The translations under genes were made by a program, and so were the position numbers. Under the pieces are notes generated by a model. That model searched no databases and was not told the DNA's origin. It saw nothing but the letters and a program-made list of their open reading frames with translations. Positions 1,383-39,628 of a stretch of 64,000 bases of DNA are shown piece by piece. The DNA lies in IMG/VR virus record IMGVR_UViG_3300021091_000014, positions 64,001-128,000 of that record; one strand, written 5' to 3'. The stretch comes from a virus. Numbering within the stretch: position 1 is the stretch's first letter; the number at the start of each line of letters is the position of its first letter.

Positions 1383-2737
1383 TATACGCCTACTGTTGTG
1401 GAATATGAGTAACTACTATCACTACGGGCTGAAGCATGCTCAGTTTTTGTTATAGTAGTACTATTATCTATATTATTAACTATAATTGGAGCTACCGCAT
1501 CTTTCTTTTCTATAATAATTTCTTCTGATGATTCTGCAATGTTTAAAGTTTTAGGCATAGTAAAGACTGGCAACTCCAGCGTCCCATCAGCCGTTTCAGT
1601 TATCTCACTTTCTCCATCCGAAGTAGCATCTTCTGATAATATTTCCATTGCTGGAGCCGGGACTGCTGTGGATTGGGGAGCAGAAGAAGTAGATGCTGTT
1701 TGAGTTTCTTGCTGAGGCGTTACTGCTTGATTAACAGCCGACTTATTTGATTCTTTAACTAAAGGAGGAACAGCCGACGCAATAGGAGCTTTCTCTATCG
1801 ACTGGGCCTGCACCCCTTCTGTAACTGATTCTTTTTCATCATCATCCTCTTCTTTAACTGCATCTATCTTAGGGGAAGCTCGTTCCTCTTCATCAAAAAA
1901 GCTCACTGCTTCATCATATATTTCATATAGTAAAAGCCCTATTGCTGCAAAAGTTCCTACAAATGGAATAGCAGTGAGTAGTTTTTTTCCAACGTTAGGA
2001 GCAATACGAGACGCAAATGCAAAAAGTTTTGATAGCTTACCTTTACCTTTTAATGCTTGCTTTTCTTTTTTAAGATCATCACGCGCGCTTTTAGCATTGC
2101 GCTTTTTCTCATCTATTACCTTTTCTTCTTTAGCTTTCTTTTTCTTTTCTTTCTCTACTTCTTTTTTATCTTTATCTAACTTTCCTTTTTCATCAACTAA
2201 ATCATCATTAGCAGCATCAGTTATACCAAATAAAATAGAAGTAACTCTAGAAAGCTCTTTCACTGCTTCAAGAGTTGTTCCAATTTGCTTAAAGAGTTTG
2301 TAAGCAAATACTCCAGTAAGCACAGCAGTAATACCTATTAGGGTATTTTTAATTACACCGAGAGTTTCTTGTCCTATAAGCCCGGAAATAAAACTTGCAA
2401 GATATTCTCTTGATTCTTTATTAATAAGAAAAGGAAGTATTAAGCCTAATTTTGCTAAATCAAAAGCTTGTTTCTTAGCTTTCGCAGCAATTTCTGGCAT
2501 ACGACTTTCTGGAATAGCATCAGGGGGAGGAGGAGGCTCCTCTTCACTTAAGTAATTAAGAAGAAGATCACTTAGCTCACTAGCTGATTGTTTAAGCTCA
2601 AGAGATCCTTCTTCTATATTATTTACTTCTGATTTAATATTAAGGAAAAAACCAACGCTTCCAAACATAGCAGATGATGCTTCATTTATAGCATCCTGCT
2701 TTTGTTTATCTCTTGCTTTTTTTCTTACTGATACCAT
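1382..2737 (-). CDS. Tape-measure/hub-like helical protein (gp29-like position)
   Basis: 451 aa with hydrophobic segments, a Lys/Glu coiled coil and a C-terminal 'APIIVNNIDNSTT' motif; lies directly downstream of gp26/gp51-like genes. Confidence 0.5.
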   Translation of the reverse strand: MVSVRKKARDKQKQDAINEASSAMFGSVGFFLNIKSEVNNIEEGSLELKQSASELSDLLLNYLSEEEPPPPPDAIPESRMPEIAAKAKKQAFDLAKLGLILPFLINKESREYLASFISGLIGQETLGVIKNTLIGITAVLTGVFAYKLFKQIGTTLEAVKELSRVTSILFGITDAANDDLVDEKGKLDKDKKEVEKEKKKKAKEEKVIDEKKRNAKSARDDLKKEKQALKGKGKLSKLFAFASRIAPNVGKKLLTAIPFVGTFAAIGLLLYEIYDEAVSFFDEEERASPKIDAVKEEDDDEKESVTEGVQAQSIEKAPIASAVPPLVKESNKSAVNQAVTPQQETQTASTSSAPQSTAVPAPAMEILSEDATSDGESEITETADGTLELPVFTMPKTLNIAESSEEIIIEKKDAVAPIIVNNIDNSTTITKTEHASARSDSSYSYSTTVGV

Positions 2738-2925
2738 TATCGTTGTTTTCTTGCCTTAATGCGTTCTTGTTCTCTTTCCAAGTAATCACGAAGAAGTTCA
2801 ACGTAGAGATCTCTCTCAAAGGGTATCATGTTTTCAATTTCTGTAACTGACCATTTATGGTGCTGAGCCAAACTAAAAATTAAAGTATAATAATTGCTTA
2901 GGTTATTATGACTCAGCCCAACATA
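2737..2925 (-). CDS. gp51-like hub assembly ORF, probably made as a -1 frameshift extension of gp26
   Basis: Reads YVGLSHNNLSNYYTLIFSLAQHHKWSVTEIENMIPFERDLYVELLRDYLEREQERIKARKQR*, resembling the QHHK.S..E.ENM.P.ER..Y small ORF of T4-like phages. No ATG at the 5' end. Its stop overlaps the next ATG. Confidence 0.75.
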   Translation of the reverse strand, partial: YVGLSHNNLSNYYTLIFSLAQHHKWSVTEIENMIPFERDLYVELLRDYLEREQERIKARKQR

Positions 2926-3623
2926 AAAAAATCATTTAACGAGGAAAGCTTAATTGTTCTTTCATTACCAAGACTGTTTGTATATTTAATTTCGTGATAT
3001 AATCTAGGCATTGTCTGAAAGAAATCTTGAATCTTTTTAAAAGATTTAACATCTAAATTTTGTAGAAAATCTTCTAGCTCTTCGCTAGAAGAATCACTTG
3101 CCATATAAACATTATCTCCATCATAAATTTTATCAATACAATTTTTAAGAATATCAAAAAATAAATCTGCTTCACTGTCTGTATTACTAATTTTTTCTGA
3201 CATCCCGGCATGCGGGTAAGCAAGATAAAAGCCAAGCTTATCTGTTACTTCTATTTTGTTAGTATGTGCAGGATCAAATCTTACTTCCACATCATCTAAA
3301 TTTACTTCTACGTCATACTTTAATTCATCTTCTAAATCTTTATAAGTCAACTTAATAACATTGTTAACCGATCTAGCTCTTATTTTTAAAAACAAATACT
3401 CTAAGTCAAAAGTAGCAAGCTTATCAATATCTACATTATTAGTAATAATACAATTATTAATTACTTGCTTAATAGAATTAATAATCTCATCTGAATCATT
3501 ACCCTGCATTGCCATTAATAATATTTTTTCTTCTTTTACTAAAAACGGTCTTACTACTAATTTTTCTTTGCTTGATGGTAATGTCACTTCAAAAGTCGGA
3601 TGACTAATTTTAGGTAAAGCCAT
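2913..3623 (-). CDS. gp26: Baseplate hub assembly protein, gp26-like
   Basis: MALPKI..P.FEVTLPS...RPFLVKEEKILL, FDLEYLFLKIRARSV, C-terminal L.DFF. Confidence 0.9.
   Translation of the reverse strand: MALPKISHPTFEVTLPSSKEKLVVRPFLVKEEKILLMAMQGNDSDEIINSIKQVINNCIITNNVDIDKLATFDLEYLFLKIRARSVNNVIKLTYKDLEDELKYDVEVNLDDVEVRFDPAHTNKIEVTDKLGFYLAYPHAGMSEKISNTDSEADLFFDILKNCIDKIYDGDNVYMASDSSSEELEDFLQNLDVKSFKKIQDFFQTMPRLYHEIKYTNSLGNERTIKLSSLNDFFMLG
2925..2931 (-). promoter_or_regulatory. Putative -1 ribosomal frameshift heptamer T TTT TTT
   Basis: Minus strand GAT TTT TTT ATG TTG GGC TGA gives an X XXY YYZ heptamer in the correct phase, three sense codons before the gp26 stop. Confidence 0.7.
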
Positions 3624-7577: not shown

Positions 7578-8848
7578 CAAATAAAACGTACGAACCTGGT
7601 GATGTTAATATATTAAAGGTTACATTAAGAAAAAATGGCTCTGGCTCTCAAATTCCAGTAGACATTAGATCACAGATGCTTTCAATGTCTGTTTATGAAG
7701 ACATTGAAGAGCCGTCCATGCTTTTAGAACTAACAATGGTTGACTCTATCAACTTAGTTCAAGATTATCCTATTGTTGGAGAAGAAATTATATCAGTAAG
7801 CTTTTTTACTCCTGGTAGAGACAATCCTACCAAGCTAGACTTTTATGTTTATAATGTAGAGAGTACCGGTACAAGTCCTACTGCTAAAGGATCTATTTAC
7901 ATTCTTAAAGCTGTTTCGCCATGTCATTATTATAATGCAAGTGAGCTTATAGAGAAATCTTATAAAGATACTATTGATGAAATGGTTAAAGATATTTTGA
8001 AGACGACTCTTAGTAATAGCAGTGCAGGATCAAACAAATATACGGTTGAAAAAACTAAAGGTATACTTCCATTAACTGTTCCAAGATTAAAGCCATTTGA
8101 AGCAATTGATTTCTTAAGACAGAAAGCTATAAGTGCGGAGTTTGCTTCTGGAGGATCATTTGTATTTTTTGAGAATCAATTTGGACATCAATTTAAAAGC
8201 GTAGAAGCTCTTCTTAAAGAAGGTAAACAAGACATACAATCAAAAGTATTTACTTACGCTCCAGATACCATAAGTGATAAAGAGAGACAGCAATATGCAT
8301 TTAGAAATATTATTAGGTACACACACTTAGGTAAATTTGATTCAATTGAAAAAATTAATAGTGGGGTAGTTGTTAATACAGTTCAAGCTTTTGATATACT
8401 TACTAAACAAGTAGCAACAACAAAATTTAATTTATCTGAAAAAGCAAAGAGTTTTGTATCTACTGATAATAAAGGTCGATTACCTAACTCAACAGAATTT
8501 GTAGAAAAATACTCTAAATCAGCTTCTAAAAAATTCTTTATGGCTAAAGACAGCTCTAGAGGAGATGATTATATTGATACTAATTTAGGATCTAAATCAG
8601 CTTACGCCTCTTTATTAAATCAAAATGCCGTGCGTATTTTAATTTACGGAGACAGTTACTTAACAGCTGGTGACCTTATACAACTTGATCTACCCGAACT
8701 TTCTGGTACTACAGAAAAAAAAGTTAGTGATAGAAATAATTCTGGAAATTATTTAATTACTAAACTTAGACATATTTTAACAATGGAAGAAGGTGGTAAA
8801 CCAAAACATCAAATTTCTCTTGACTGCGTTAGAATGGGATACAAATGA
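7574..8848 (+). CDS. Baseplate hub protein (gp27-like position)
   Basis: Between gp53 and gp5; VYEDI..P, F.FFEN..G..F.S, GD..L.AGD, SGNYLIT..RH. Confidence 0.65.
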   Translation: MTNKTYEPGDVNILKVTLRKNGSGSQIPVDIRSQMLSMSVYEDIEEPSMLLELTMVDSINLVQDYPIVGEEIISVSFFTPGRDNPTKLDFYVYNVESTGTSPTAKGSIYILKAVSPCHYYNASELIEKSYKDTIDEMVKDILKTTLSNSSAGSNKYTVEKTKGILPLTVPRLKPFEAIDFLRQKAISAEFASGGSFVFFENQFGHQFKSVEALLKEGKQDIQSKVFTYAPDTISDKERQQYAFRNIIRYTHLGKFDSIEKINSGVVVNTVQAFDILTKQVATTKFNLSEKAKSFVSTDNKGRLPNSTEFVEKYSKSASKKFFMAKDSSRGDDYIDTNLGSKSAYASLLNQNAVRILIYGDSYLTAGDLIQLDLPELSGTTEKKVSDRNNSGNYLITKLRHILTMEEGGKPKHQISLDCVRMGYK

Positions 8849-9651
8849 CGACTAAAAATTTAGGTCAAGAAGGTATTGTTTGGTTTGTAGGCAAAGTTGA
8901 GGACAGACAAGATCCTTTAATGCTTGGAAGGGTAAAAGTCCGCGCTTACCATTTTCACACTGATAATAAATCGCTGATGCCTACTGACGAATTGCCTTGG
9001 GCATTAATTATGATGCCTCCTAATAATCCAAGTCACGATAAAGTTGGACTATCACCAAACGGGCTAACCGTAGGATCTACGGTTATAGGATTTTTTATGG
9101 ATGGGCATGATGCCAATCAGCCTGTAGTAATGGGTACCATTCATGGTATTCCAGATAATGATAAGTCAAAGCATGATGTGGCTGAACCTGCTCGTGAGAA
9201 TAACAATATAAGTAAAGAATACGATAGTAAAGAACCTAAGTCTGCCTATAAGGCGAAATACCCATATAATAAAGTTTTGAGAACTGAAGGCGGGCATGTA
9301 GTAGAAATAGATGACACACCAGGAGAAGAACGGCTACACATCTATCATAAATCTGGAACCTATACTGAAATTGATAAAGATGGTCGTAAAGTAGAAAAGG
9401 TAGTAGATAACGGCTTTGAAATAATCCTTAAAAATCAAACAGTACATATTAAAGGCAACTATGACGTGTTTGTAGATGGTGTTACAACGTTTACTTGCGA
9501 ACAGGTAAATATGACAGGTAATTTAAGAGTAGATAAAGATGTAAGTGTTGGCAAGGACGTCTTTACTGACGTTGGTGTTAGCCTTAACAAGCATACCCAT
9601 ACAGATACTCCTGGACTTGGTGCCGGAGTCACAACTCCTCCTAACAGATAA
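8845..9651 (+). CDS. gp5: Central spike, gp5-like: OB fold + short beta-helix + HxH tip, no lysozyme domain
   Basis: WFVGKVEDRQDPLMLGRVKVR, YPYNKV..TE.GH..E.DDTPG.ERLH..H.SGT, C-terminal LNKHTH; only 268 aa. Confidence 0.9.
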   Translation: MTTKNLGQEGIVWFVGKVEDRQDPLMLGRVKVRAYHFHTDNKSLMPTDELPWALIMMPPNNPSHDKVGLSPNGLTVGSTVIGFFMDGHDANQPVVMGTIHGIPDNDKSKHDVAEPARENNNISKEYDSKEPKSAYKAKYPYNKVLRTEGGHVVEIDDTPGEERLHIYHKSGTYTEIDKDGRKVEKVVDNGFEIILKNQTVHIKGNYDVFVDGVTTFTCEQVNMTGNLRVDKDVSVGKDVFTDVGVSLNKHTHTDTPGLGAGVTTPPNR

Positions 9652-10598
9652 TGGCAAATTATATAAACGAAAGTGGATTTGAGCTAGGCATTAATGGGCT
9701 TAGAATTGTTGATGACTCCGGAACAGTTAAATATAAACTGCCGATTAATGATGGAACTAACGGTCAAATTATAAAGACTGACGGGTCCGGTCAGCTTTCT
9801 TTTATTACACCTCAATCCCTAGTTGGATCAAAAGGTGAAAAAGGTGATAATGGTGTAAAGGGTGATCAAGGTACTGCAGCTTCCAAAGGGGATAAAGGTG
9901 ATAAAGGAGATAAAGGTGAAAAGGGAGCAGACGGCATTGGTACTAATGGGGCGCAAGGTGCCCAAGGCGCGCAAGGACCTCAAGGCGCAAAAGGAGAAAG
10001 AGTAAGCAGTGCATCCTATTCTGACAGCACTAATGTTATTACATTTACTAATTCTGACTCTTCTGTATTTACAGTATCAGGAGTAAAAGGACAGAAAGGT
10101 GATACTGGATCAAAAGGAGATAAAGGTGACAGTGGTTCAAAAGGAGATACAGGCCCACAAGGATCTCAAGGCGCTTTCTCAACTAATTCGGACGGACAAA
10201 TAAACTCTCTCGGTGTAGGAACAGCAGCATCTACCGTAACTGGTCAAATTAGAGCTACTAATAGCATTACAGCTTTTTATTCTGACGTTAGATTAAAAGA
10301 AAATATTCAGGAAATAGAAAACGCACTAGACAAAATTGAACAACTAAGAGGGGTTTTTTATAATCAAAATGTATTAGCTGAGAAGTTTGGTTACAATGAT
10401 TATAAAAGGCAAGTAGGTGTAATCGCACAGGATGTACAGAAAATATTGCCCGAGGCTGTAACAGGAGCTCCTTTTGATATTGATAAAGACGGCAATAGTA
10501 TTTCAGGTGAAAATTATTTAACCGTGTACTATGAAAAAATAATCCCACTTCTTATTCAGTGCATAAAAGAACTTAAACAATTAATAGACAATAGGTAA
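9651..10598 (+). CDS. Collagen-like fibre protein with C-terminal S74 intramolecular chaperone
   Basis: G-x-K and GAQ triplets; YSDVRLKENI, GVIAQDVQKILPEAV, Y..IIPLLIQ.IKEL. Confidence 0.85.
   Translation: MANYINESGFELGINGLRIVDDSGTVKYKLPINDGTNGQIIKTDGSGQLSFITPQSLVGSKGEKGDNGVKGDQGTAASKGDKGDKGDKGEKGADGIGTNGAQGAQGAQGPQGAKGERVSSASYSDSTNVITFTNSDSSVFTVSGVKGQKGDTGSKGDKGDSGSKGDTGPQGSQGAFSTNSDGQINSLGVGTAASTVTGQIRATNSITAFYSDVRLKENIQEIENALDKIEQLRGVFYNQNVLAEKFGYNDYKRQVGVIAQDVQKILPEAVTGAPFDIDKDGNSISGENYLTVYYEKIIPLLIQCIKELKQLIDNR
10095..10149 (+). repeat. 55-bp perfect repeat, copy 1 (copy 2 at 34347-34401)
   Basis: AAAGGTGATACTGGATCAAAAGGAGATAAAGGTGACAGTGGTTCAAAAGGAGATA is identical in two collagen genes. 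Confidence 0.9.
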
Positions 10599-10601
10599 TA
10601 T

Positions 10602-11030
10602 ATGGCTACAGTAAAAAGAGCTGATAGATACACACCTTTAGAAGGCTCGTATACAATATATCAAGATTTATTTACTAAGATATTGTTTGAAAGAGATACA
10701 AAAGATGCTTCGTTAATTGAAAACGAGGACGCAGTTAAACAAGCTATAATCAATATTATTCTTACTAATGTAGGAGAAAGATTATATAATCCTACTTTCG
10801 GAAGTGAAATTAATAAAATGCTTTTTGAGAACGTTACTCCTCAAACTACATCTACGCTGATAAATTTAATTCGCAGCGCAATAGAAAACTATGAGCCAAG
10901 AGCTAATCTAATTGATGTGATTGCTTCTCCTCTACCGGATAATAACGCATATACTGTATCTATTGTTTTTAGCGTAATAAATAAAACTGAACCAGTGTAT
11001 CTAGAATTTTTACTTAACAGGGTAAGATAG
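10602..11030 (+). CDS. gp25: Baseplate wedge subunit
   Basis: AVKQAI.NI.LT..GER...P.FGS, I.NYEPRA. Confidence 0.92.
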   Translation: MATVKRADRYTPLEGSYTIYQDLFTKILFERDTKDASLIENEDAVKQAIINIILTNVGERLYNPTFGSEINKMLFENVTPQTTSTLINLIRSAIENYEPRANLIDVIASPLPDNNAYTVSIVFSVINKTEPVYLEFLLNRVR

Positions 11031-25970: not shown

Positions 25971-27596
25971 ATGCCAGCTAATACCCAATATTTCAGAGTA
26001 GAGTACGGATTAGATGTTAATCTAGATGCCGTTATAGGAAAAGAACTATCTGTAACTAATACAGCTTCTTTTGGTAATAATGTAACTATTCAAGGCGATC
26101 TAGTAGTTAATGGTCAAACAACCTTTAACGACTCCCAATTAGTTGAACTTGGTACCGGACAGGTAGTTTTTGTTTCAGGTGCTCAGGGAGCTCCATCTAC
26201 AGATGCAAGATTAACTGTCAACAGAGGTGCAAGCGCTAATGTAGAAATAAGATGGAATGAGACTCTTGACACATGGCAATTTACAAATAATGGAACTAAT
26301 TACTACCCATTAAAATCTTACTCTGATTTAACTTATCAGTTTAGCACCCTTAACTCAACCAATGTTGATCCAGGATCCGGACTATTAAGATTTAATAACG
26401 GCACCCCCTCTCTAGTTACTCAAATTTCTATTGATAATACTGAGCTTGGAGGAACTGATGTTTCTGCATATATTGATTCTTTAGATGACAGCAACAATAC
26501 AGTAAAAGGATTTTTACTTTTTAGAAGCTCTGTTAATCAAGATCGATTTATTGTATATGAACTTAATTCAATAACTACCCAGACAGGGTATCGTCAGTTT
26601 TCAGTAACACATGTTTCTGGTAGCACATTGTTTACTAATGATGATGTTTTATTTTTAAGCTTTCTTCGTTCAGGAGATAAAGGTGATAAAGGTGAAAAGG
26701 GTGAAAAAGGTCAGAAAGGTGAAAGGGTAAGCTCGGGTAATTTTGATAGCGGCACCAACTCTTTACTATTTACTAATTCTGACGGATCTACTTTTACAGT
26801 GGCAGGTATAAAAGGTGATAAGGGTTCTTCAGGAGAAAAAGGTAATAAAGGCGATACAGGTGCTCAAGGCATTGGGGGTCCAGGAGCACAAGGCGATTTA
26901 GGTCCCGGAGGGCCTCAAGGTAATAAAGGCGATACAGGTGCTAAAGGTGAACCAGGAGGTCCAGGTGGTCCAGGTGTTGCAGGGCCTCAAGGGAATTTGG
27001 GCGCTCAAGGTCTTAAGGGAGATGTCGGCCCTCAAGGTTCTAAGGGAGATAAGGGAGATAAAGGTGCACAAGGCGGACCAGGTCCTGCAGGTCCTCAGGG
27101 ATCTGGCGGTGATAAAGGTAATAACGGTGCTCAAGGGCAACCCGGCCCGGCCGGTACTGTAATTGACTCATCTAGTGATTTAAATATTAGATCTTTAAGA
27201 GTTAATACAGGTGCAGTTTCAATCAATGCAGGAGAAATATTAGCAGCTGGTGATATTACAGCATTCTATTCAGACTTAAGACTTAAAAAGAATATTGAAG
27301 AAATAAAAGATGCCACAAAAAAATTATTAATGCTAACCGGAGTTTATTACTCCCAGAACGAATTAGCAGAAAAGTTTGGTTATAACGACTACAGAAGACA
27401 ACTTGGACTAATAGCTCAAGAAGTACAAAAAATATGCCCTGAAGCTGTTAGACTAGCACCATTTGATTTAGATGAAAACGGAATAAGCAAATCCGGAGAA
27501 AACTATCTTACTATTAAATACGAGAGATTGATTCCTCTTCTCATTCAGTCTATAAAAGAAATTGATAAAAGGGTTAGTGATTTAGAAAATAAGTGA
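25971..27596 (+). CDS. Collagen-like fibre protein (Pro- and Lys-containing Gly-X-Y) with S74 chaperone
   Basis: GDK/GEK/GPQ/GGP triplets at about 26670-27155; YSDLRLKKNI...GLIAQEVQ. Confidence 0.85.
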   Translation: MPANTQYFRVEYGLDVNLDAVIGKELSVTNTASFGNNVTIQGDLVVNGQTTFNDSQLVELGTGQVVFVSGAQGAPSTDARLTVNRGASANVEIRWNETLDTWQFTNNGTNYYPLKSYSDLTYQFSTLNSTNVDPGSGLLRFNNGTPSLVTQISIDNTELGGTDVSAYIDSLDDSNNTVKGFLLFRSSVNQDRFIVYELNSITTQTGYRQFSVTHVSGSTLFTNDDVLFLSFLRSGDKGDKGEKGEKGQKGERVSSGNFDSGTNSLLFTNSDGSTFTVAGIKGDKGSSGEKGNKGDTGAQGIGGPGAQGDLGPGGPQGNKGDTGAKGEPGGPGGPGVAGPQGNLGAQGLKGDVGPQGSKGDKGDKGAQGGPGPAGPQGSGGDKGNNGAQGQPGPAGTVIDSSSDLNIRSLRVNTGAVSINAGEILAAGDITAFYSDLRLKKNIEEIKDATKKLLMLTGVYYSQNELAEKFGYNDYRRQLGLIAQEVQKICPEAVRLAPFDLDENGISKSGENYLTIKYERLIPLLIQSIKEIDKRVSDLENK

Positions 27597-27605
27597 AAGG
27601 TTATT

Positions 27606-28175
27606 ATGAGAAGTTTTTGGGCAGTATGGACCGGTGTTGTTAGTGAGTTGGCTTGTAATAGAATTATAGAAAGAGGACTGGCGTTAAACCATCAAAAAGC
27701 TATTGTTGGATATGATGATAATGCTAGAACTTCTGATAACAGGTCAACTACTATAGGATGGTTTGATCGTAAAATAGATAAAGACATTGCTGATCTTATT
27801 ACTATGTACGCAACTGAAGCAAACAGAGAATTTTTTGATTTTGATATCTCTCATGGCGTTTTTGAAATGCAGTTTAGCATCTATAAAACTGAAGAAAAAG
27901 GCCGATTTGGATGGCATAGTGATACTCAGTATAAGACAAATATAATGACAGATAGAAAACTGTCTTTTGTTTTACAGTTGTCCGAGCCATCAGATTACGA
28001 AGGTGGTGAATTTGAATTTAAAGTGCCCGATGGTTCAACTTTAGACAGAAACAATTTTTTACCTAAAGGTTCAGTGCTAGTTTTTCCATCTATATTTGAA
28101 CATAGAGTAACAGAAATAACTAAAGGTACAAGATATTCTTTAGTGTCCTGGATTGAAGGGCCTAAGTGGAGATAG
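27606..28175 (+). CDS. 2OG-Fe(II) oxygenase (prolyl-hydroxylase/PKHD-like)
   Basis: WHSD, RKLS, YEGGEF, VFPS..EHRVT..TKG.RYSLV.W (HxD...H...R). Confidence 0.9.
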   Translation: MRSFWAVWTGVVSELACNRIIERGLALNHQKAIVGYDDNARTSDNRSTTIGWFDRKIDKDIADLITMYATEANREFFDFDISHGVFEMQFSIYKTEEKGRFGWHSDTQYKTNIMTDRKLSFVLQLSEPSDYEGGEFEFKVPDGSTLDRNNFLPKGSVLVFPSIFEHRVTEITKGTRYSLVSWIEGPKWR

Positions 28176-28188
28176 TTTTTTTTAATAT

Positions 28189-28196
28189 TATAAATA
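28189..28196 (+). promoter_or_regulatory. T4 late promoter TATAAATA
   Basis: Exact consensus, intergenic. Confidence 0.8.
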
Positions 28197-28219
28197 CTAA
28201 TAATAATATTTAAGCGGCT

Positions 28220-28543
28220 ATGGCTACTAAAGTAAACTTTTTAATAGATCAAGGTACCACGTTTGAAACGTCGATTAACCTAAATGATGATGACGGTAAC
28301 CCTATTGATTTAACCGGGTTCACTGTTGCCGGTCAGTTGAGAAAGCATTATACATCATCTAATTATATTCAGTTTAATGCTAATTTAGCGCTCGGTGAAT
28401 TAAACCTAGCATTATCCGCTAATACAACTGATGCGTTAACTCCTGGTAGATATGTTTATGATGTAGAATTAACAGATACTAATGGATTAATAACAAGGTT
28501 GTTAGAAGGTATTATTACTGTAACTCCGCAGGTAACGAGATAG
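28220..28543 (+). CDS. Small Ig-like virion protein (BppU-N-like)
   Basis: IDQG.TF, DLTG.T...Q.RK, GRY.YDV, R..EG...V.P.VT. Confidence 0.65.
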   Translation: MATKVNFLIDQGTTFETSINLNDDDGNPIDLTGFTVAGQLRKHYTSSNYIQFNANLALGELNLALSANTTDALTPGRYVYDVELTDTNGLITRLLEGIITVTPQVTR

Positions 28544-28547
28544 AACA

Positions 28548-28811
28548 ATGCCAATTAATCAGTCAGCTCTTTCGTTAAACGTAAGGTTAAATCTTGCTAA
28601 CACAAAAATTACTACTACCCCTGCGCAGCCAGTAACGTTAAAATCGCAATTTAAAACAATAAGTACACTTAATGAATTGACAGACGTTGTGGAAACGGCG
28701 CCAGAATCTGGCCAGACGTTAGTTTACGATGCTACAGTTGATAAATATATAGTAAAGAAACTTACAACAGCAGACTTAGACTTAACGTCCTTGGACGGGG
28801 GAACCTTTTAA
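28548..28811 (+). CDS. Small fibre-associated protein
   Basis: L..L.DV......GQ.LVYD motif; ends LDGGTF. Confidence 0.6.
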   Translation: MPINQSALSLNVRLNLANTKITTTPAQPVTLKSQFKTISTLNELTDVVETAPESGQTLVYDATVDKYIVKKLTTADLDLTSLDGGTF

Positions 28812-30824
28812 ATGTCAGAGACCATACTCCAAATTAAACGCAGTACCACAACATCAGTACCTGCAAATCTACAACCCGGAGAATTAGCATATACCAGTAA
28901 CGGACAAGTTCTATTTGTTGGAAGTCCGGAAGGGTCTAATACTGCTAACGTTATAGCTATTGCCGGGGAAAGATTTCCCGGAGTCTTAACTGCTAATCAA
29001 GCGTTAGTCTCTAATACCTCAGCCTGGATTGACAATATTCAAACAGCCAAGTTAATACTTGGACCTGTAGGAACATCAACAAACGTAACCTCTATTGTAA
29101 CGGATAGCTCTCTAGCAAGCGTTTCAAATAATACATTAGCAACTGCCTGGGCTGTTAAAACCTATATTGATACACAGGCCGGCTCTTCTACACTCGGCGG
29201 TCTTTCTGATGTAACAATAACCTCTGCTGGCAATAATCAAATATTAGTATACGATGCAATTAGTGGCCAGTGGGAAAATCATTCAATTTCTGGAACTGCA
29301 AATGAAGTAGAAGTTACATTTGATGGACAAGACATAACAGTTGGACTGCCTGATGCTGTAACAGTAACATCATCTATTACTGTTGGTACCGTTGGAATAA
29401 ATGGATCATCTTTCCATGTTGGTAACAGCACTGTTAACACATTTATCAATTCTACAGCGGTAGCAATTGACGGGGTATTCTCAGCTGGCAATACAACAAT
29501 TAATGGATCAGCAACCATTACTGGTGAGTTGATTTTAGGTTCTAACCTCAGCGTTAATACTACTCATATCTCTGTCGGTAACAGCACGGTTAATACAACC
29601 ATTAACGCTGTTAGTATTGATACAGATGGTATTTTAAATGTAGAAGGCACTGCAAGACTCGGTAACACAACGATTGTAGGCTGGGCTAATGTTTCAGATA
29701 CAATAGCTGTAGGTGCAAACGTTGTTGTTAATACAGCAGGAATTTCAATTGGAAATTCTACAGTTAACGCACAAATTTATTCTGCTAACGTTAATTTAAA
29801 CGGTACGCGTTTACACGTTGGTGATGCAACAAACAATACTGTAATTACTGGGGTAGGAATAACTGCCACCGGCAACGTTAATATCACCGGATCAGCTAAC
29901 GTCGGATCTCATATTCACGTTGGTTCGAACCTACAGATTAATACGTCGACAATTACTTTAGGCAACTCTTCAGTTAACACGACGATTACATCCTCGTTTA
30001 TAACTGTCAACACAGTATCTACTTCTAACGTATATGTTACCGGTAATGCTCAAATAACTGGCGATTTAAGAGCAGATAATGATGTAAGACTAGGTTCAAA
30101 CCATACAGATGCAATTTCAATTCTTGGAGCTGTTAATACTAGTGTTGTTCCATTCAGTAATACCACATACGACTTAGGTAGTGCAACTCAGCAATGGGCT
30201 AATGTATACGGTAATAATATTATCGGGATGTATGGCACGTTCCATAACGATGTAAGCATTAGTGGAAACCTTACAGTCACTGGTTCTTTAGTAACAATTA
30301 ACGTTTCAACATTATCAATCGTTGACCCGTTAATTCAACTTGCATCTAATAATACTGTAAGTGATGCTATCGACATTGGTTTCTTTGGCTCGTTTAACGT
30401 AGGTGGTGGCAATCACGAACACGCCGGTTTATTCCGTGATGCTACTGACGGCAAATTTAAATTATTTACTAATTTAGAGCCATCGCCAACTACCACAGTT
30501 GACACATCAAATAACACCTACACTGTTGCTACGTTAAATGCATTCTTAGAGTCAGGTGCATTTATATCTAATAGCTCAGGTGTTACAATTACTGCAAACT
30601 CTTCCTCTGCAGTTAATATAACAGCTAACTCATTAAGTTTAAGCACCGCGCTAACAGTTCCAAATGGCGGTACAGGTCAAGCAACATTTACTAACAATGC
30701 TGTTCTATTAGGCAATACAGCCGGAGCATTGAAATCTGTTTCAAGCTCAACACAAGGGCACGTATTACAGATTAATGGCTCAGGCGTTCCTACATTCGCA
30801 ATGCTTGACGGAGGCACGTTCTGA
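28812..30824 (+). CDS. Tail-fibre-like structural protein
   Basis: N-terminal IKRS....P..L..GELAY, repeated VGNSTVN units, HAGLFRDATDG, ends LDGGTF. Confidence 0.7.
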   Translation: MSETILQIKRSTTTSVPANLQPGELAYTSNGQVLFVGSPEGSNTANVIAIAGERFPGVLTANQALVSNTSAWIDNIQTAKLILGPVGTSTNVTSIVTDSSLASVSNNTLATAWAVKTYIDTQAGSSTLGGLSDVTITSAGNNQILVYDAISGQWENHSISGTANEVEVTFDGQDITVGLPDAVTVTSSITVGTVGINGSSFHVGNSTVNTFINSTAVAIDGVFSAGNTTINGSATITGELILGSNLSVNTTHISVGNSTVNTTINAVSIDTDGILNVEGTARLGNTTIVGWANVSDTIAVGANVVVNTAGISIGNSTVNAQIYSANVNLNGTRLHVGDATNNTVITGVGITATGNVNITGSANVGSHIHVGSNLQINTSTITLGNSSVNTTITSSFITVNTVSTSNVYVTGNAQITGDLRADNDVRLGSNHTDAISILGAVNTSVVPFSNTTYDLGSATQQWANVYGNNIIGMYGTFHNDVSISGNLTVTGSLVTINVSTLSIVDPLIQLASNNTVSDAIDIGFFGSFNVGGGNHEHAGLFRDATDGKFKLFTNLEPSPTTTVDTSNNTYTVATLNAFLESGAFISNSSGVTITANSSSAVNITANSLSLSTALTVPNGGTGQATFTNNAVLLGNTAGALKSVSSSTQGHVLQINGSGVPTFAMLDGGTF

Positions 30825-30851
30825 TATTATAATTGAGTTTTAAGGATTGTA

Positions 30852-31052
30852 ATGGAAACTGAATTTATTAATGCTTTTATTGATAAGCAAAGAAAACTAA
30901 TAGAAGAGTTAGTTTCAAAAAATCTACTAGCAGAGGCAAAGATCACTATCTTAGAAAAAAAGGTAGCTGATCTTTCCTCCCAGGTAGAATCTCTATCATC
31001 AAAATCCAATAAAAAAGAGAATGTGAAGCATGACGAAAATACTGGTGATTAA
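30852..31052 (+). CDS. Small coiled-coil hypothetical protein
   Basis: 66 aa heptad pattern; AAGGA Shine-Dalgarno upstream. Confidence 0.6.
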   Translation: METEFINAFIDKQRKLIEELVSKNLLAEAKITILEKKVADLSSQVESLSSKSNKKENVKHDENTGD

Positions 31053-33042
31053 TTTATCATCCAGACCTGATAGGCTTTCTTTTATGAATCAACAGCTTTC
31101 AGGTTTAGAGTGGGAGAGAATTGATGCTCTTAATGGATATAATCTAGGACTTAATGATTTTAAATCTCTCGGGTTTACACCCTATAGCCAATGGACTGAC
31201 CCACTTTTAGGTCGCAACCATACTAACACAGATATTGCTGCAATGATCTCCCATTACCGGGCATGGGAAAAATGTATCGAATATGACTGCCCGGTTTTAA
31301 TTTTAGAAGATGATGCTGAAAAAATTAATAAATTAGATTTAAATGAAATAGAAAATTTGCTTCAGACATATGATGTAGTGTATCTTGATCATAGAGAAAT
31401 GGTAGAAGAAAAAACTCAGTATATTGATAAAAACTTTTTTAAGCCATACTACCCTTACTGGAATAGCGCATATGCTATTTCACCAGCAACAGCTAGAAAA
31501 ATAGTAGAACTATCTAACTATAAAAATAATTTAATACCTGTAGATGAATTTTTTCCTAGCTTGTTTCTTGTTGATTATAATGAATACTGCCTATCAAAAA
31601 ATAAAAATGTAATTAATAATTTTAATAGTTTACAACGCATTTTTACCGAGCATTTTAGCTTATCACCAATAGCTTATAAGAATAAAGTATTTAAACAAAA
31701 ACCACGCAGTGAGCTTGGTTCTGATATTGAAAGAGGTATTTTAATGAACACAATTGAAAACTTGCACCTACTTACTGTTGCAACTGATATTACAAAACTA
31801 GGATACCTAAACAAGTCTGTTAATGAAATTGGAAATCAATTTGTTAATTTAGGACAAAATAAAATGTGGACCGGTGGTGACATGAGTAAGCCCGGCGGAG
31901 GAATGAAATTAAACCTGGTAAAAAATTATATTAAATTCCTGTCTGATAACGATATAATTTTATTTGTTGATGGATATGATGTCTTTATTAATGATGATAG
32001 GAATACTATACTTGAAAGATTTAAAGGATTTAATGTTGATGTACTTTTTGCAGCAGAAAAAAATTGCTGGCCCTCTAATGAATTAGAATCTTTCTTTCCA
32101 AAAAGCAACACTGAGTATAATTATTTAAACAGTGGTGTTTATATCGGATACGTTCATGCATTAAAGAAATTACTTGACCAAACTATTTCAGATAGTGAAG
32201 ACGATCAGTTGTTTTTACAAAAACAATATTTAAAGCAAAAAATTCTTTCAACTGAAAGCCAAGTTAAAATAGCATTAGATCATGAAAATTATATTTTTCA
32301 ATGTCTGGCTGGAGCTGAAAAAGAATTATCTATTAAAAAGAATAAACAGATACTAAACAATGCCACAAGATGCTGCCCATGTATTCTTCACGGGAACGGA
32401 GGCAGCAGCACAAAAGCAAAATTTGATAGTTTAGTGAATGATATTTTAAACAATAATATTTTTATCACTAGAAAGACTTCAGTTGAAATGATTCATACAA
32501 CTGAATTCAATGAAATTTCTCCCGGTTCAGATATTATTGAAATGGATTTTATGACGCCAGAAAATTGTCAAAAGCTTATAGATCTAGCAGAACAAAATGG
32601 CAAATGGGAATCTATGTACGGTGATAAATTTCCAGGTCAAGAAATAAGGATTAGAGAATTTTCTATGGACTTCTGGAATGATTTAGAAGAACACTTTAAG
32701 AATACTATTAATCCTGTGATAGAAAAACACTGGTGGCCATTAATGATGTATGGTTTGAGAGATGCTTTTATTATTAAGTACGATCAAAAAACTCAATCTA
32801 ATTTAAAATGCCATCACGATGCCTCTTTAGTTTCCGGGATGGTCAAATTAAACGATGGATACACAGGTGGTGAAACTTATTTTTACAGGCAGAATTTATC
32901 AAATATAAATACTTCAGTAGGAAAAATGATTCTATGGCCTGGGCAAGTTACCCATGGACACGAAGGTAGAACGGTACATACCGGCACCAAATACAATCTT
33001 GTTATTTGGACTTCACGACATAGAAACGATATTAATTACTAA
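31030..33042 (+). CDS. Three-domain collagen-modifying-like enzyme: GT25 + PLOD-type glycosyltransferase + lysyl hydroxylase
   Basis: GT25: VINL..RPDR, SH..AW, LILEDD, AY.IS, PVDEF. PLOD-GT: LLTVAT, W.GGDM..PGGG.K, FVDGYDV, FAAE..CWP, LNSG..IG, DDQL, HGNG. Hydroxylase: HHDAS, GG..F, PGQ.TH.HEG, GT.Y. Confidence 0.9.
   Translation: MTKILVINLSSRPDRLSFMNQQLSGLEWERIDALNGYNLGLNDFKSLGFTPYSQWTDPLLGRNHTNTDIAAMISHYRAWEKCIEYDCPVLILEDDAEKINKLDLNEIENLLQTYDVVYLDHREMVEEKTQYIDKNFFKPYYPYWNSAYAISPATARKIVELSNYKNNLIPVDEFFPSLFLVDYNEYCLSKNKNVINNFNSLQRIFTEHFSLSPIAYKNKVFKQKPRSELGSDIERGILMNTIENLHLLTVATDITKLGYLNKSVNEIGNQFVNLGQNKMWTGGDMSKPGGGMKLNLVKNYIKFLSDNDIILFVDGYDVFINDDRNTILERFKGFNVDVLFAAEKNCWPSNELESFFPKSNTEYNYLNSGVYIGYVHALKKLLDQTISDSEDDQLFLQKQYLKQKILSTESQVKIALDHENYIFQCLAGAEKELSIKKNKQILNNATRCCPCILHGNGGSSTKAKFDSLVNDILNNNIFITRKTSVEMIHTTEFNEISPGSDIIEMDFMTPENCQKLIDLAEQNGKWESMYGDKFPGQEIRIREFSMDFWNDLEEHFKNTINPVIEKHWWPLMMYGLRDAFIIKYDQKTQSNLKCHHDASLVSGMVKLNDGYTGGETYFYRQNLSNINTSVGKMILWPGQVTHGHEGRTVHTGTKYNLVIWTSRHRNDINY
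32904..32911 (+). promoter_or_regulatory. Possible late promoter TATAAATA for the large collagen gene
   Basis: Exact consensus inside the 3' end of the enzyme gene, about 160 nt before 33069. Confidence 0.45.
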
Positions 33043-33068
33043 CAAAATTGTTAGATGGATGATGCCAC

Positions 33069-36473
<3,405 letters not shown>

Positions 36474-36480
36474 CTAACTA

Positions 36481-39628
<3,148 letters not shown>

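Follow-up and report, generated by a model that had tools for sequence, protein, structure and literature searches.

We studied a gene in the structural module of a marine myovirus that encodes, on one chain, a GT25 glycosyltransferase domain, a PLOD/LH3-type glycosyltransferase (GT) domain and a lysyl-hydroxylase-type (LH) oxygenase domain, and we conclude that its product is probably a cytoplasmic trifunctional enzyme that modifies collagen lysines in the phage's own collagen-like fibres before their triple helices fold. The window, i.e., the whole stretch of 64,000 nucleotides that was analysed, corresponds to the structural gene module of a marine, T4-like myovirus, in which the enzyme gene is flanked by two fibre genes (Table 1). 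All the catalytic and acceptor-binding residues mapped from human COLGALT1 and LH3 and from mimivirus R699 were present in the phage enzyme, and nearly all of them were invariant in 27 homologues. The gene lies directly before that of a collagen-like fibre with Lys only at the target position of the triplets, and the phage therefore probably decorates its own fibres in the manner of animals. From these comparisons we infer the activity of the enzyme, the order of its steps, the identity of the sugars and the biological role.

Table 1. Positions of the enzyme gene, its domains and the neighbouring features in the window
Feature	Coordinates	Strand	Basis
Small collagen-like fibre gene with S74 chaperone domain, possible substrate	9651..10598	+	Pfam
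Collagen-like fibre gene with C-terminal S74 chaperone domain, possible substrate	25971..27596	+	Pfam Collagen, Peptidase_S74
Sigma-70-like promoter match, 5' of the enzyme gene	30805..30833	+	TTGACG-17-TATAAT, 11/12 positions; consensus match only
Three-domain enzyme gene (P0001), 670 aa	31030..33042	+	Single uninterrupted ORF; Pfam and PDB matches; model pLDDT 90
GT25 domain, predicted hydroxylysine galactosyltransferase, residues about 1-235 to 1-242	31030..31734	+	Pfam, COLGALT1 matches
PLOD/LH3-type GT domain, predicted galactosyl-hydroxylysine glucosyltransferase, residues 243-474	31756..32451	+	Pfam GT_PLOD, 6wfv
Short linker replacing the PLOD accessory domain, residues 475-495	32452..32514	+	pLDDT; LH3 structural alignment
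Lysyl-hydroxylase-type Fe(II)/2OG oxygenase domain, residues 496-670	32515..33039	+	L230, LH3 matches
Collagen-like fibre gene (P0003), 1134 aa, predicted main substrate	33069..36473	+	Pfam Collagen E 1.4e-78
Fibre gene with two short collagen tracts, possible substrate	36488..39628	+	Pfam Collagen, He_PIG, TIG

Domain architecture and active sites

The start codon of the enzyme gene is credible because the N-terminus MTKILVINL aligns with the N-termini of all homologues. The translation contains the motifs TVAT, WTGGD, GGGMK, FVDGYDV, AEKNCWP, LNSGVYIG, DDQLF, HGNGG, HHDAS, PGQVTHGHEG and LEDD. A sequence-only reading of this DNA had described a three-domain protein of 670 residues, GT25-like with an EDD motif at residues ~1-235, following the PLOD glycosyltransferase motif by motif at ~239-475 and matching the PLOD hydroxylase (HHD, PG..TH.HEG) at ~495-670, with the central accessory (AC) domain of animal PLODs absent; the single reading frame, the motifs listed and the Pfam, PDB and structural matches given below bore out this description in each of its parts. 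A scan of the enzyme against the NCBIfam profiles matched no family. An artefactual fusion caused by a missed stop codon or a frameshift was rejected since the same architecture recurs in over 100 full-length homologues from independent contigs, and degenerate or non-enzymatic domains were rejected since the catalytic residues are invariant in homologues down to 41% identity.

The AlphaFold2 model of the enzyme had a mean pLDDT of 90, the only low-confidence stretch (pLDDT <50) being the linker at 476-482; its pTM was 0.46, so that the geometry between domains is not fixed by the model. We compared the model with solved chains using VIA-align, with Foldseek also used, and took the conservation of active sites from an alignment of 27 sequences 41-78% identical to the query. 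Structure prediction and superposition on LH3 and COLGALT1, proposed in the sequence-only reading, gave matches for all the domains (Z 32.0, 26.1 and 22.6), and its view of the three modules as collagen-type enzymes was supported, as both sequence and predicted fold were closest to collagen enzymes; the grouping with non-collagen enzymes that would have spoken against it was not found (COLGALT1 Z 26 vs 16; L230 Z 22.6 vs at most 16.8).

The GT25 domain matched Pfam Glyco_transf_25 over residues 1-174 (E 1.3e-16, 61.5 bits vs a cut-off of 24), and a PDB sequence search with residues 1-240 returned COLGALT1 chains only, the match being to the catalytic domain (E 2e-15). The model of residues 1-242 superposed on COLGALT1 339-580 with Z 26.1, an rmsd of 2.2 A and 24% identity, against Z 16.1 for a bacterial beta-1,4-galactosyltransferase (PDB 8xkd). 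In the sequence alignment with COLGALT1, E93-D94-D95 corresponded to COLGALT1 E435/D436/D437 and D172/E173 to D522/E523, all five residues being invariant in the 27-sequence alignment; R15 corresponded to R354 and was kept in at least 90% of the aligned sequences, Y143-W144 to Y494/W495, and R122 to K470, with Arg in place of Lys. In COLGALT1 the EDD residues are the Mn2+/ribose motif, R354 is the pyrophosphate Arg, D522 the catalytic base, E523 the proposed anchor of the hydroxylysine (Hyl) epsilon-amine, the YW pair the Hyl cradle and K470 the basic residue of the constriction that selects Gly (PMC11897130, PMC12987934). The human W495A substitution abolishes activity (PMC12987934); W144 varies in the phage family, with Leu, Met or Asn in some of the 27 aligned homologues. 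The region of the COLGALT1 lid loop (Y561/T562/S569/T571) aligned structurally only, as part of the superposition of model residues up to 242 on the chain up to 580; residues 176-242 used as a sequence query for this loop gave only a chance match (E 2.9), and the region is filled by a conserved RSxxGSDIE motif.

In the middle domain, Pfam GT_PLOD (PF25342) was matched over residues 243-474 with E 1.4e-57 and 195.1 bits (cut-off 27), covering profile positions 3-238 of 246, and the PDB sequence search found the human LH3 GT domain (E 2e-38) and mimivirus R699 (E 1e-27). Residues 244-472 of the model superposed on the human galactosyl-hydroxylysine glucosyltransferase (GGT) domain 6wfv with Z 32.0, rmsd 1.5 A, 220 aligned residues and 34% identity; Z was 30.9 with R699, and Foldseek gave a TM of 0.89 to the solved GGT domain. 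The features of GT_PLOD enzymes were present: a D-x-x-D plus His Mn2+ site, a UDP-stacking Trp (W347), a poly-Asp helix (D391-D392-Q393) and the residues that contact the donor and acceptor sugars in R699 and LH3. Invariant in the 27 homologues were K293, D314, D317, E343, W347, N367, D391, D392, Q393, H454 and N456, which by spacing equal R699 K62, D83, D86, E114, W118, N138, D162, D163, Q164, H216 and N218. These eleven residues of R699 are important by mutagenesis or structure, and E114, whose phage equivalent is E343, is tied to the glucosylation of the acceptor (PMC12279948).

For the LH domain, Pfam 2OG-FeII_Oxy_3 was matched over residues 583-661 just below the cut-off (E 3.6e-5, 25.1 bits vs 27), and the PDB sequence search found only the LH domains of mimivirus L230 (E 2e-8) and LH3 (E 1.5e-7), with no prolyl hydroxylase at E up to 0.1. 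The model of residues 478-662 superposed on L230 682-895 with Z 22.6 and rmsd 2.1 A, whereas prolyl 4-hydroxylases reached Z 16.8 at best. H595-x-D597 and H644, invariant in the 27 homologues, aligned with the His-x-Asp...His iron triad of LH3 and L230; the LH3 equivalents of the triad and of the Arg in its GTRY motif are H667, D669, H719 and R729. Ten residues after the distal His, where lysyl hydroxylases have Arg, the phage enzyme has K654, which aligned with the GTRY-motif Arg of LH3 and with an Arg in L230. Lys occupied this 2-oxoglutarate (2OG) anchor position in 138 of 139 compact homologues. Of 15 long forms (see below) 12 had Arg, as did the two metazoan sequences in which the position was aligned. 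Lys at this position is the state found in prolyl 4-hydroxylases. Binding of 2OG by K654 stays plausible since Lys is still basic; with Lys and not Arg anchoring the C5 carboxylate of 2OG, the substrate residue or the kinetics could differ. The phage enzyme also carries an extra C-terminal tail, WTSR..D.NY, with an invariant Arg.

The spacing between the GT and LH domains is ~20 residues in the phage enzyme vs ~270 in LH3. When the model was aligned with LH3 as a whole (residues 242-663 on chain 35-738), only ~409 residues were paired and the AC domain was skipped. The enzyme thus differs from a full-length PLOD (GT-AC-LH) by the missing AC domain and from full-length COLGALT1/2 by the missing N-terminal non-catalytic UDP-Gal-binding GT domain and ER signals. 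The GT25 fold begins at residue 1, so that there is no room for such an N-terminal domain or for a signal peptide; neither a signal peptide nor an ER retention signal is apparent, which points to a bacterial cytoplasmic setting.

Collagen-like fibre genes, transcription signals and sugar supply

The collagen-like gene next to the enzyme gene starts 26 nt past the enzyme stop codon, and no terminator-like site was found in this gap. Its product has 186 Gly-X-Y triplets, the second tract spanning residues 178-282, with Lys 86 times at Y and never at X; the tracts are almost Pro-free, and Thr is the second commonest Y residue (58 times). The other three fibres repeat the pattern, Lys at Y and X being counted 16 and 0 times in the 45 triplets of the fibre encoded from 25971, 8 and 0 in the 27 triplets of that from 36488, and 13 and 0 in the 29 triplets of that from 9651.

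This linkage extends to other phages. A collagen-like ORF was present at 59 of 78 related IMG/VR loci, and at each of the 19 others the upstream flank is shorter than 5 kb. Among loci with sufficient flank (5 kb or more upstream, 3 kb or more downstream), a collagen-like ORF on the same strand lay within 10 kb in 30 of 30 and within 3 kb in 29. In the 7445 triplets of these collagen-like neighbours, Lys was found 1821 times at Y and not once at X; across related loci Thr was counted 1794 times at Y. X-Lys does occur in viral collagens: in 40 viral loci chosen for G-K-x runs, where Lys was counted 240 times at X and 103 times at Y, no GT25 or GT_PLOD domain was found within the stretches examined. 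The bias of Lys to Y alone is not specific, because Y-Lys followed by Gly-Asp/Glu would also be favoured by electrostatic stabilisation in Pro-poor triple helices.

The promoter match in Table 1 was the best sigma-70-like one in positions 28000-37000. The T4-type late promoter TATAAATA matched 7 times vs 11 expected by chance, a count that is uninformative; all 7 matches are on the positive strand and 6 of them lie 20-40 nt 5' of a start codon. None was found directly 5' of the enzyme gene; one (32904) falls within the 3' end of that gene, 158 nt 5' of the collagen gene.

The same genome, of 156.6 kb, encodes GalE (270 bits vs an NCBIfam equivalog cut-off of 262.3), which would supply UDP-Gal. 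In five related phage records GalE-like genes were absent or distant in two and just under the cut-off in the other three.

Predicted pathway and alternative readings

In the pathway that we propose, the C-terminal Fe(II)/2OG oxygenase would first hydroxylate the Y-Lys of X-Lys-Gly to 5-hydroxylysine. The GT25 domain, an inverting transferase with D172 as base and Mn2+ held via E93-D94-D95, would then transfer a hexose to the Hyl hydroxyl, most likely galactose from UDP-Gal, and the LH3-type GT domain, a retaining transferase with Mn2+ on D314/D317/H454, would add a second hexose, most likely glucose from UDP-Glc, yielding Glc-Gal-Hyl. The modification may stabilise or solubilise the Pro-poor fibres, shield them from proteases or shape receptor binding.

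It is rather unlikely that the fibres are the target but receive another glycan or are modified in another order, i.e., by direct glucosylation of Hyl, by a different GT25 sugar or at separate sites that include Y-Thr. Donor-sugar specificity is unreadable from alignments, GalE is not universal among carriers of the enzyme, and Thr ranks second at Y in the neighbouring collagen and at the related loci. The GT domain of L230 reportedly attaches glucose directly to Hyl (Luther et al. 2011), and so the LH3-type domain need not act second. R699 takes either glucose or galactose as the acceptor sugar and produces kojibiose (PMC12279948). Yet E173, the YW cradle and a basic residue at the constriction are all retained in the GT25 domain and fit Hyl-Gly and not Thr, the GT domain keeps E343, the equivalent of the R699 residue tied to acceptor glucosylation, and the two transferases fused here are precisely those brought together in animals by the COLGALT1-LH3 complex (PMC11897130).

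The Lys at the 2OG anchor bears on the oxygenase step, as the basic residue ten positions after the distal His is that of prolyl 4-hydroxylases and not the Arg of LH3 and L230. Prolyl hydroxylases were also the next-best structural matches (Z 15-17), and cyanophages encode many 2OG oxygenases of unknown substrate (PMC2938197). An oxygenase acting on Pro, on Asn/Asp or on a host protein such as a translation factor, with the transferases working on its product or independently, is nevertheless highly improbable: L230 and LH3 were clearly better matches than any prolyl 4-hydroxylase (E 2e-8 vs none up to 0.1; Z 22.6 vs 16.8), the adjacent collagen tracts are almost free of Pro and rich in Y-Lys, and the acceptor-binding residues of the fused transferases fit Hyl and Gal-Hyl. 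We give even less credence to a glycosyltransferase that modifies the host surface or its LPS, for superinfection exclusion or surface remodelling, a role to which database names point. Some homologues carry the automatic JGI name 'GR25 family glycosyltransferase involved in LPS biosynthesis', Pfam describes GT25 as an LPS biosynthesis family, and the hypervariable regions of marine myophages, rich in glycosyltransferases, have been so interpreted (PMC7029224). The JGI name, however, takes account of only one of the three domains, GT25; the chain shows neither a membrane anchor nor a signal sequence and opens straight into beta-strand 1 of the GT fold; the fit to COLGALT1 is far above that to the bacterial beta-1,4-galactosyltransferase, and the linkage to collagen genes is strict.

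Relatives and distribution of the compact enzyme

The closest known systems are human LH3/PLOD3 with COLGALT1/GLT25D1 (6fxr, 6wfv, 8zgc, 9evj) and mimivirus L230 (LH + GT, 895 aa; 6ax6), R699 (a Gal-Hyl glucosyltransferase; 9dyt) and R655 (9crz). The human pair shares with the phage enzyme the three catalytic modules and their residues for metal binding, catalysis and acceptor binding, but has them on two proteins of ~740 and ~620 aa; the phage enzyme, with the domain order GT25, GT, LH, lacks the accessory domain of LH3 and the N-terminal non-catalytic domain of COLGALT1, has Lys for the 2OG-binding Arg and bears the C-terminal tail. The mimivirus enzymes are likewise virus-encoded and collagen-modifying, and act on the virus's own collagen-like proteins. 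The phage C-terminal domain was matched best by the LH domain of L230, both in sequence and, among single domains, in structure, R699 nearly equalled LH3 as a match for the middle domain, and R655 matched the GT25 domain with Z 18. In mimivirus the activities reside on separate proteins that keep accessory regions, judging by the numbering of the solved chains, whereas the phage has all of them on one compact chain; the host of mimivirus is a eukaryote, while the virus studied here is a tailed bacteriophage.

Marine metagenome contigs encode long fusions of GT25, GT_PLOD, AC and LH (850-1190 aa; P0189, P0152 and P0162 are examples), with the same domain order as the phage enzyme but retaining an insert of 250-470 residues and mostly with Arg at the 2OG position, where the compact phage forms have Lys. 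The inserts of P0189 and P0162 are homologous to the metazoan PLOD AC domain (BLASTP 8e-30 and 8e-19 vs residues 270-540 of Lingula PLOD1). The contigs of P0152 and P0189 also carry ubiquitin, RING, ELO, FtsH, topoisomerase IA and PIF1 genes, a content that suggests giant viruses. In a GT-domain tree built with FastTree, midpoint-rooted only and with 55% support for the basal split, so that no direction of transfer was read from it, most of the long fusions grouped with metazoan PLODs and apart from a compact phage clade.

Glc-Gal attached to hydroxylysine is considered characteristic of animal collagen, and among viruses mimivirus is the known exception. In a 2022 review of prokaryotic collagens, those of phages were dismissed as stretches of ~18 residues in capsid proteins and the collagen systems of giant viruses were taken to depend on the eukaryotic host (PMC8968730). 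The far-reaching proposal that marine tailed phages bear fibres with animal-type Glc-Gal-hydroxylysine, made in the bacterial cytoplasm by one enzyme lacking the AC domain, that their compact lineage, with Lys as 2OG anchor and a clade of its own in the GT-domain tree, is an independent and possibly older branch of the PLOD/COLGALT machinery, and that the animal system derives ultimately from virus-borne fusions, is speculative and in our opinion unlikely as a whole. If the enzyme is active as its sequence predicts, the full three-step chemistry would take place in bacterial cells during infection by common marine phages, with fibres of hundreds of triplets as the substrate, and new data would be gained on the origin of the PLOD and COLGALT modules, fused forms being found in phages and in giant-virus-like contigs. 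This would suggest that phage host-recognition fibres are glycoproteins, with a bearing on phage adsorption and host range in the ocean. The enzyme would also offer a compact and probably bacterial-cytoplasm-compatible means of producing recombinant collagen in E. coli with hydroxylated and glycosylated lysines, and a minimal system, free of the accessory domains found in LH3 and COLGALT1, in which to study the coupling of lysyl hydroxylase, galactosyltransferase and glucosyltransferase.

The compact three-domain architecture is not confined to the window: hundreds of phage homologues share it, and uncultured marine phages are a widespread source of the family. A DNA-level search of positions 28000-37000 against deposited phage genomes gave no match, the homologues being found at the protein level. 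Among published phages, full-length homologues (at least 93% query coverage, 36-38% identity) were found in Synechococcus phages S-CAM9, S-PRM1 and S-8S53/55/56 and in Roseobacter phage CRP-6; they are 55-60 residues shorter than the enzyme studied here, and their annotation, 'hypothetical protein' or '2OG-Fe(II) oxygenase', assigns them no function. Full-text searches of the literature found neither a description of the family nor a biochemical or mass-spectrometric report of activity for this enzyme or any phage homologue. In S-CAM9 the homologue gene lies ~1.5 kb 3' of a gene for a tail fibre that includes a collagen tract. Species-representative prokaryote genomes had only 8 loci, of which 6 were on MAG contigs, 4 of those shorter than 5 kb; in that collection the family is essentially virus-borne. 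Where a collagen-like gene was present at these prokaryote-genome loci, it adjoined the enzyme gene.

Domain composition, fold and active-site residues

The enzyme gene coded for three domains joined in one protein, as the sequence-only reading had proposed, and Pfam, sequence matches in the PDB and structural superpositions agreed on this arrangement (see table below). Against PDB sequences, the middle domain matched human LH3 (E 2e-38) and the mimivirus Gal-Hyl glucosyltransferase R699 (E 1e-27), the only match of the N-terminal domain was the catalytic C-terminal domain of COLGALT1 (E 2e-15), and the C-terminal domain matched the LH domains of mimivirus L230 (E 2e-8) and human LH3 (E 1.5e-7), with no prolyl hydroxylase among its matches to E 0.1. 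COLGALT1 has a non-catalytic N-terminal domain whereas the phage enzyme does not. An AlphaFold2 model based on 27 homologues had a mean pLDDT of 90 and a pTM of 0.46, i.e., the domains are confident singly but not in their relative placement. Kinship with non-collagen enzymes, named beforehand as the finding that would count against the proposal, was not what the predicted model suggested: its domains superposed on collagen enzymes at Z 22.6-32.0 and on the listed non-collagen comparators at lower values (bacterial beta-1,4-galactosyltransferase, 16.1; prolyl 4-hydroxylases, at most 16.8). The gap between the GT and LH domains was only about 20 residues, with pLDDT below 50 at residues 476-482, and from this spacing the PLOD accessory domain is absent, as had been supposed.

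Active-site residues were followed in an alignment of the query with 26 homologues (41-78% identity), with residue roles taken from three recent papers. In COLGALT1, Mn2+ is held by E435-x-D437, the ribose is bound by D436, R354 touches the pyrophosphate, the catalytic base is D522, the proposed anchor of the Hyl amine is E523, Y494/W495 cradle Hyl, and K470 forms a constriction selecting the following Gly (PMC11897130; PMC12987934). By phmmer, the phage counterparts were E93-D94-D95 (E435-D436-D437), R15 (R354), D172 (D522), E173 (E523), Y143-W144 (Y494/W495) and R122 (K470); E93, D94, D95, D172, E173 and Y143 were invariant across the family, and W144 was not invariant in the 27-sequence alignment. 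In R699, structure or mutagenesis showed the importance of K62, D83, D86, E114, W118, N138, D162, D163, Q164, H216 and N218 (PMC12279948), which correspond with identical spacing to K293, D314, D317, E343, W347, N367, D391, D392, Q393, H454 and N456 of the phage enzyme, all 11 of them invariant.

The His-x-Asp...His motif of LH3 and L230 has its aligned counterparts in H595-x-D597 and H644 of the C-terminal domain. Ten positions beyond the distal His, the alignments to LH3 and L230 show Arg in those two proteins, but the basic residue there is Lys in the phage enzyme (K654) and in 138 of 139 compact homologues (GT25-GT-LH without accessory domain); Lys at this site is the state of prolyl 4-hydroxylases. 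K654 should still be able to bind 2OG, but it marks the compact lineage as a distinct subtype. The compact forms also had an additional C-terminal tail, WTSR..D.NY, whose Arg was invariant.

Coordinates, domain scores and superpositions of the features discussed
Feature	Position	Strand	Remarks
Enzyme gene	31030-33042	+	Single ORF, 670 codons
Collagen-like fibre gene	33069-36473	+	Pfam Collagen, E 1.4e-78
Upstream fibre gene	28812-30824		No collagen tract; 6 Lys in 670 residues
Collagen-like, S74-chaperone fibre gene	25971-27596		Some Pro within triplets
Separate 2OG-Fe(II) oxygenase gene	27606-28175	+	189 aa; Pfam 2OG-FeII_Oxy_3, E 1.7e-14
Coiled-coil-like ORF	30852-31052	+	66 codons
Sigma-70-like promoter match	30805-30833		11/12 positions, best of the region
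Glyco_transf_25	residues 1-174		Pfam E 1.3e-16
GT_PLOD	residues 243-474		Pfam E 1.4e-57
2OG-FeII_Oxy_3	residues 583-661		Pfam E 3.6e-5, 25.1 bits against a cut-off of 27
VIA-align, human GGT domain 6wfv	model 244-472		Z 32.0, rmsd 1.5 A
VIA-align, R699	middle domain		Z 30.9, rmsd 1.8 A
VIA-align, COLGALT1 339-580	model 1-242		Z 26.1, rmsd 2.2 A
VIA-align, L230 682-895	model 478-662		Z 22.6, rmsd 2.1 A
GalE and following ORF	G000:C1 (phage contig) ~49.2-51.2 kb (locus L209:1492-2457, 2402-3448)		~13-15 kb before window start

Genome setting and linkage to collagen genes

PHROGs matches to baseplate wedge, tail fibre, sheath, portal and major head proteins identified a T4-like myovirus. The source IMG/VR record has 156,637 bp (estimated 91% complete, the window being bases 64001-128000) with a G+C content of about 36%, and its major capsid protein was at most 68% identical to the counterparts of Stenotrophomonas, Methylophilales, Pelagibacter and Synechococcus myophages. 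The enzyme gene lay within a run of same-strand structural genes and was flanked by fibre genes on both sides. The collagen-like gene began 26 nt past the enzyme stop codon, and the interval up to its start at 33069 held no terminator-like site. Its product had 186 Gly-X-Y triplets, in which Pro was rare and Lys occurred 86 times at Y and never at X; three further collagen-like fibre genes in the window followed the same rule (in total, Y held 123 Lys and X none).

The two flanking fibres had in common an N-terminal motif, Q-[IL]-K-R-S ... G-E-L-A, which suggests a common attachment domain. The separate oxygenase gene began 9 nt past the S74-chaperone fibre gene, and its product, whose closest solved relatives were PKHD/PiuC-type hydroxylases, may be a second fibre-modifying hydroxylase; elsewhere in the phage genome were four more 2OG-FeII_Oxy_3 genes, including a cluster of three at C1:12.7-15.8 kb. 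The 66-codon ORF occupied the gap 5' of the enzyme gene and overlapped its start by 23 nt in a different frame, and the promoter match, just 5' of this ORF, spanned the upstream fibre gene's stop codon. T4 late-promoter-like TATAAATA sites, all seven on the positive strand and as a total in no excess over chance in the window, were located at 28189, 32904, 39640, 43853, 45932, 52268 and 53282. Six of them sat 20-40 nt 5' of start codons (the 28220 ORF, 39669, 43906, sheath 45969, 52306 and the major head gene 53327), and the seventh (32904) was in the 3'-terminal part of the enzyme gene and preceded the collagen gene by 158 nt.

A scan of IMG/VR found 479 loci encoding relatives. A collagen-like ORF was present in 59 of the 78 loci examined, usually on the upstream side of the enzyme gene; in the other 19 the upstream flank was always shorter than 5 kb and mostly shorter than 2 kb. 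Wherever the flanks reached at least 5 kb upstream and 3 kb downstream (30 loci), a same-strand collagen-like ORF was present, at most 3 kb away in 29. The 7445 neighbouring triplets held Lys 1821 times at Y and 0 times at X. A rough control, biased by its selection for three consecutive Gly-Lys-X triplets in IMG/VR, gave 40 loci with true collagen tracts, in which Lys occurred 240 times at X and 103 at Y and no GT25 or GT_PLOD domains were found in the stretch examined; thus, viral collagens generally tolerate X-Lys but avoid it beside the enzyme. Y-Lys-Gly-Asp/Glu is also favoured by salt-bridge stabilisation, and the Y-Lys bias is supporting evidence, not proof, of a collagen-lysine substrate.

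Seven control contigs (L107, L126, L138, L144, L148, L159 and L164) carried tandem arrays of 4-6 2OG oxygenase genes (E 1e-15 to 1e-6 against the LH-domain HMM). They resemble the cyanophage dioxygenase arrays noted, with no collagen link drawn, in a 2010 comparative genomics study which predicted that bacterial collagen-like proteins are hydroxylated by other dioxygenase families (PMC2938197).

Predicted pathway and alternatives

The enzyme is a compact, phage-borne, accessory-domain-free variant of the animal and mimivirus collagen Lys hydroxylase-glycosyltransferase system, and the collagen-lysine-modifying function predicted for it was well supported by every computational test available. 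We infer its activity, step order, sugars and role from homology, fold, residue conservation and genomic linkage. The C-terminal domain would hydroxylate Y-Lys of nascent, unfolded fibre chains using Fe2+, 2OG and O2; the GT25 domain would then attach a first hexose (inverting, Mn2+) and the LH3-type domain a second one (retaining, Mn2+), with Glc-Gal-Hyl as the expected product.

The main rival keeps the target and changes the glycan, e.g., Hyl would be glucosylated directly, as is reportedly the case for mimivirus L230. The phage genome also encodes a UDP-glucose 4-epimerase, GalE (TIGR01179, 270 bits against the NCBIfam equivalog cut-off of 262.3), which would be a source of UDP-Gal; GalE-like genes slightly below the cut-off were present in three of five related records. 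That the oxygenase hydroxylates another target is a weaker alternative, given its LH-domain matches, and so is a role in LPS, which has the JGI automatic name in its favour and the adjoining collagen genes against it. For the ORF overlapping the GalE end, NCBIfam glycosyltransferase families matched only weakly (E 4e-8 to 1.6e-6).

Distribution and relationships of the family

The family to which the enzyme belongs is large and unstudied. Searching 5.8 billion proteins returned 435 matches; among the 120 listed, almost all had GT25 and GT_PLOD and some also a scored oxygenase domain. Full-length relatives (36-38% identity) from Synechococcus phages S-CAM9, S-PRM1 and S-8S53/55/56 and Roseobacter phage CRP-6 were annotated as hypothetical protein or 2OG-Fe(II) oxygenase. 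Full-text literature searches turned up no account of the phage family, and a 2022 review presents bacteriophage collagens as ~18 residues inside capsid proteins, not useful for expression (PMC8968730). Among 185,579 species-representative prokaryote genomes there were only eight loci: six on MAG contigs, four of these under 5 kb, and variants in Streptomyces kronopolitis and Kaistia terrae.

These two are cultured bacteria, and their copies lie on large chromosomal contigs. In Streptomyces (L085) the copy was split into ORFs of 478 aa (7857-9293) and 259 aa (9827-10606) and adjoined a small Pro-rich collagen-like ORF; the Kaistia copy (L086, 8001-9266) matched only query residues 234-670 (GT and LH), with a collagen-like ORF ~7.4 kb upstream at the locus edge.

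With the middle domain as query, a full HMMER search gave 2924 cluster representatives at E <=1e-3, which were typed with domain HMMs made from the 27-sequence alignment. Four types were distinguished: compact GT25-GT-LH; GT-LH and GT25-GT forms, fragments among them; metazoan PLODs, e.g., Lingula PLOD1; and long GT25-GT-insert-LH forms of 850-1190 aa. In the two long proteins compared, the insert was a homologue of the accessory domain of metazoan PLODs (BLASTP 8e-30 and 8e-19). In a FastTree phylogeny of 165 GT domains, 45 of 47 compact forms fell in a single group (SH-like support 87) and metazoan PLODs were nested among forms with the accessory domain. The tree is unrooted and its basal split weak (55%), and it supports no direction of descent.

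Two long fusions of GT25, LH3-type GT, accessory and LH domains (L090:1666-5004, 1112 aa; L091:6515-9094, 859 aa) came from marine contigs which are probably of giant viruses, judging from their ubiquitin, RING, ELO, FtsH, topoisomerase IA and PIF1 genes; another GT25 gene, standing alone, adjoined the fusion in L090. Additional N-terminal regions were observed in the proteins P0095 (875 aa), P0097 (954 aa) and P0098 (942 aa), one of which had a Methyltransf_24 domain (PF13578) ahead of the GT25-GT-LH core.
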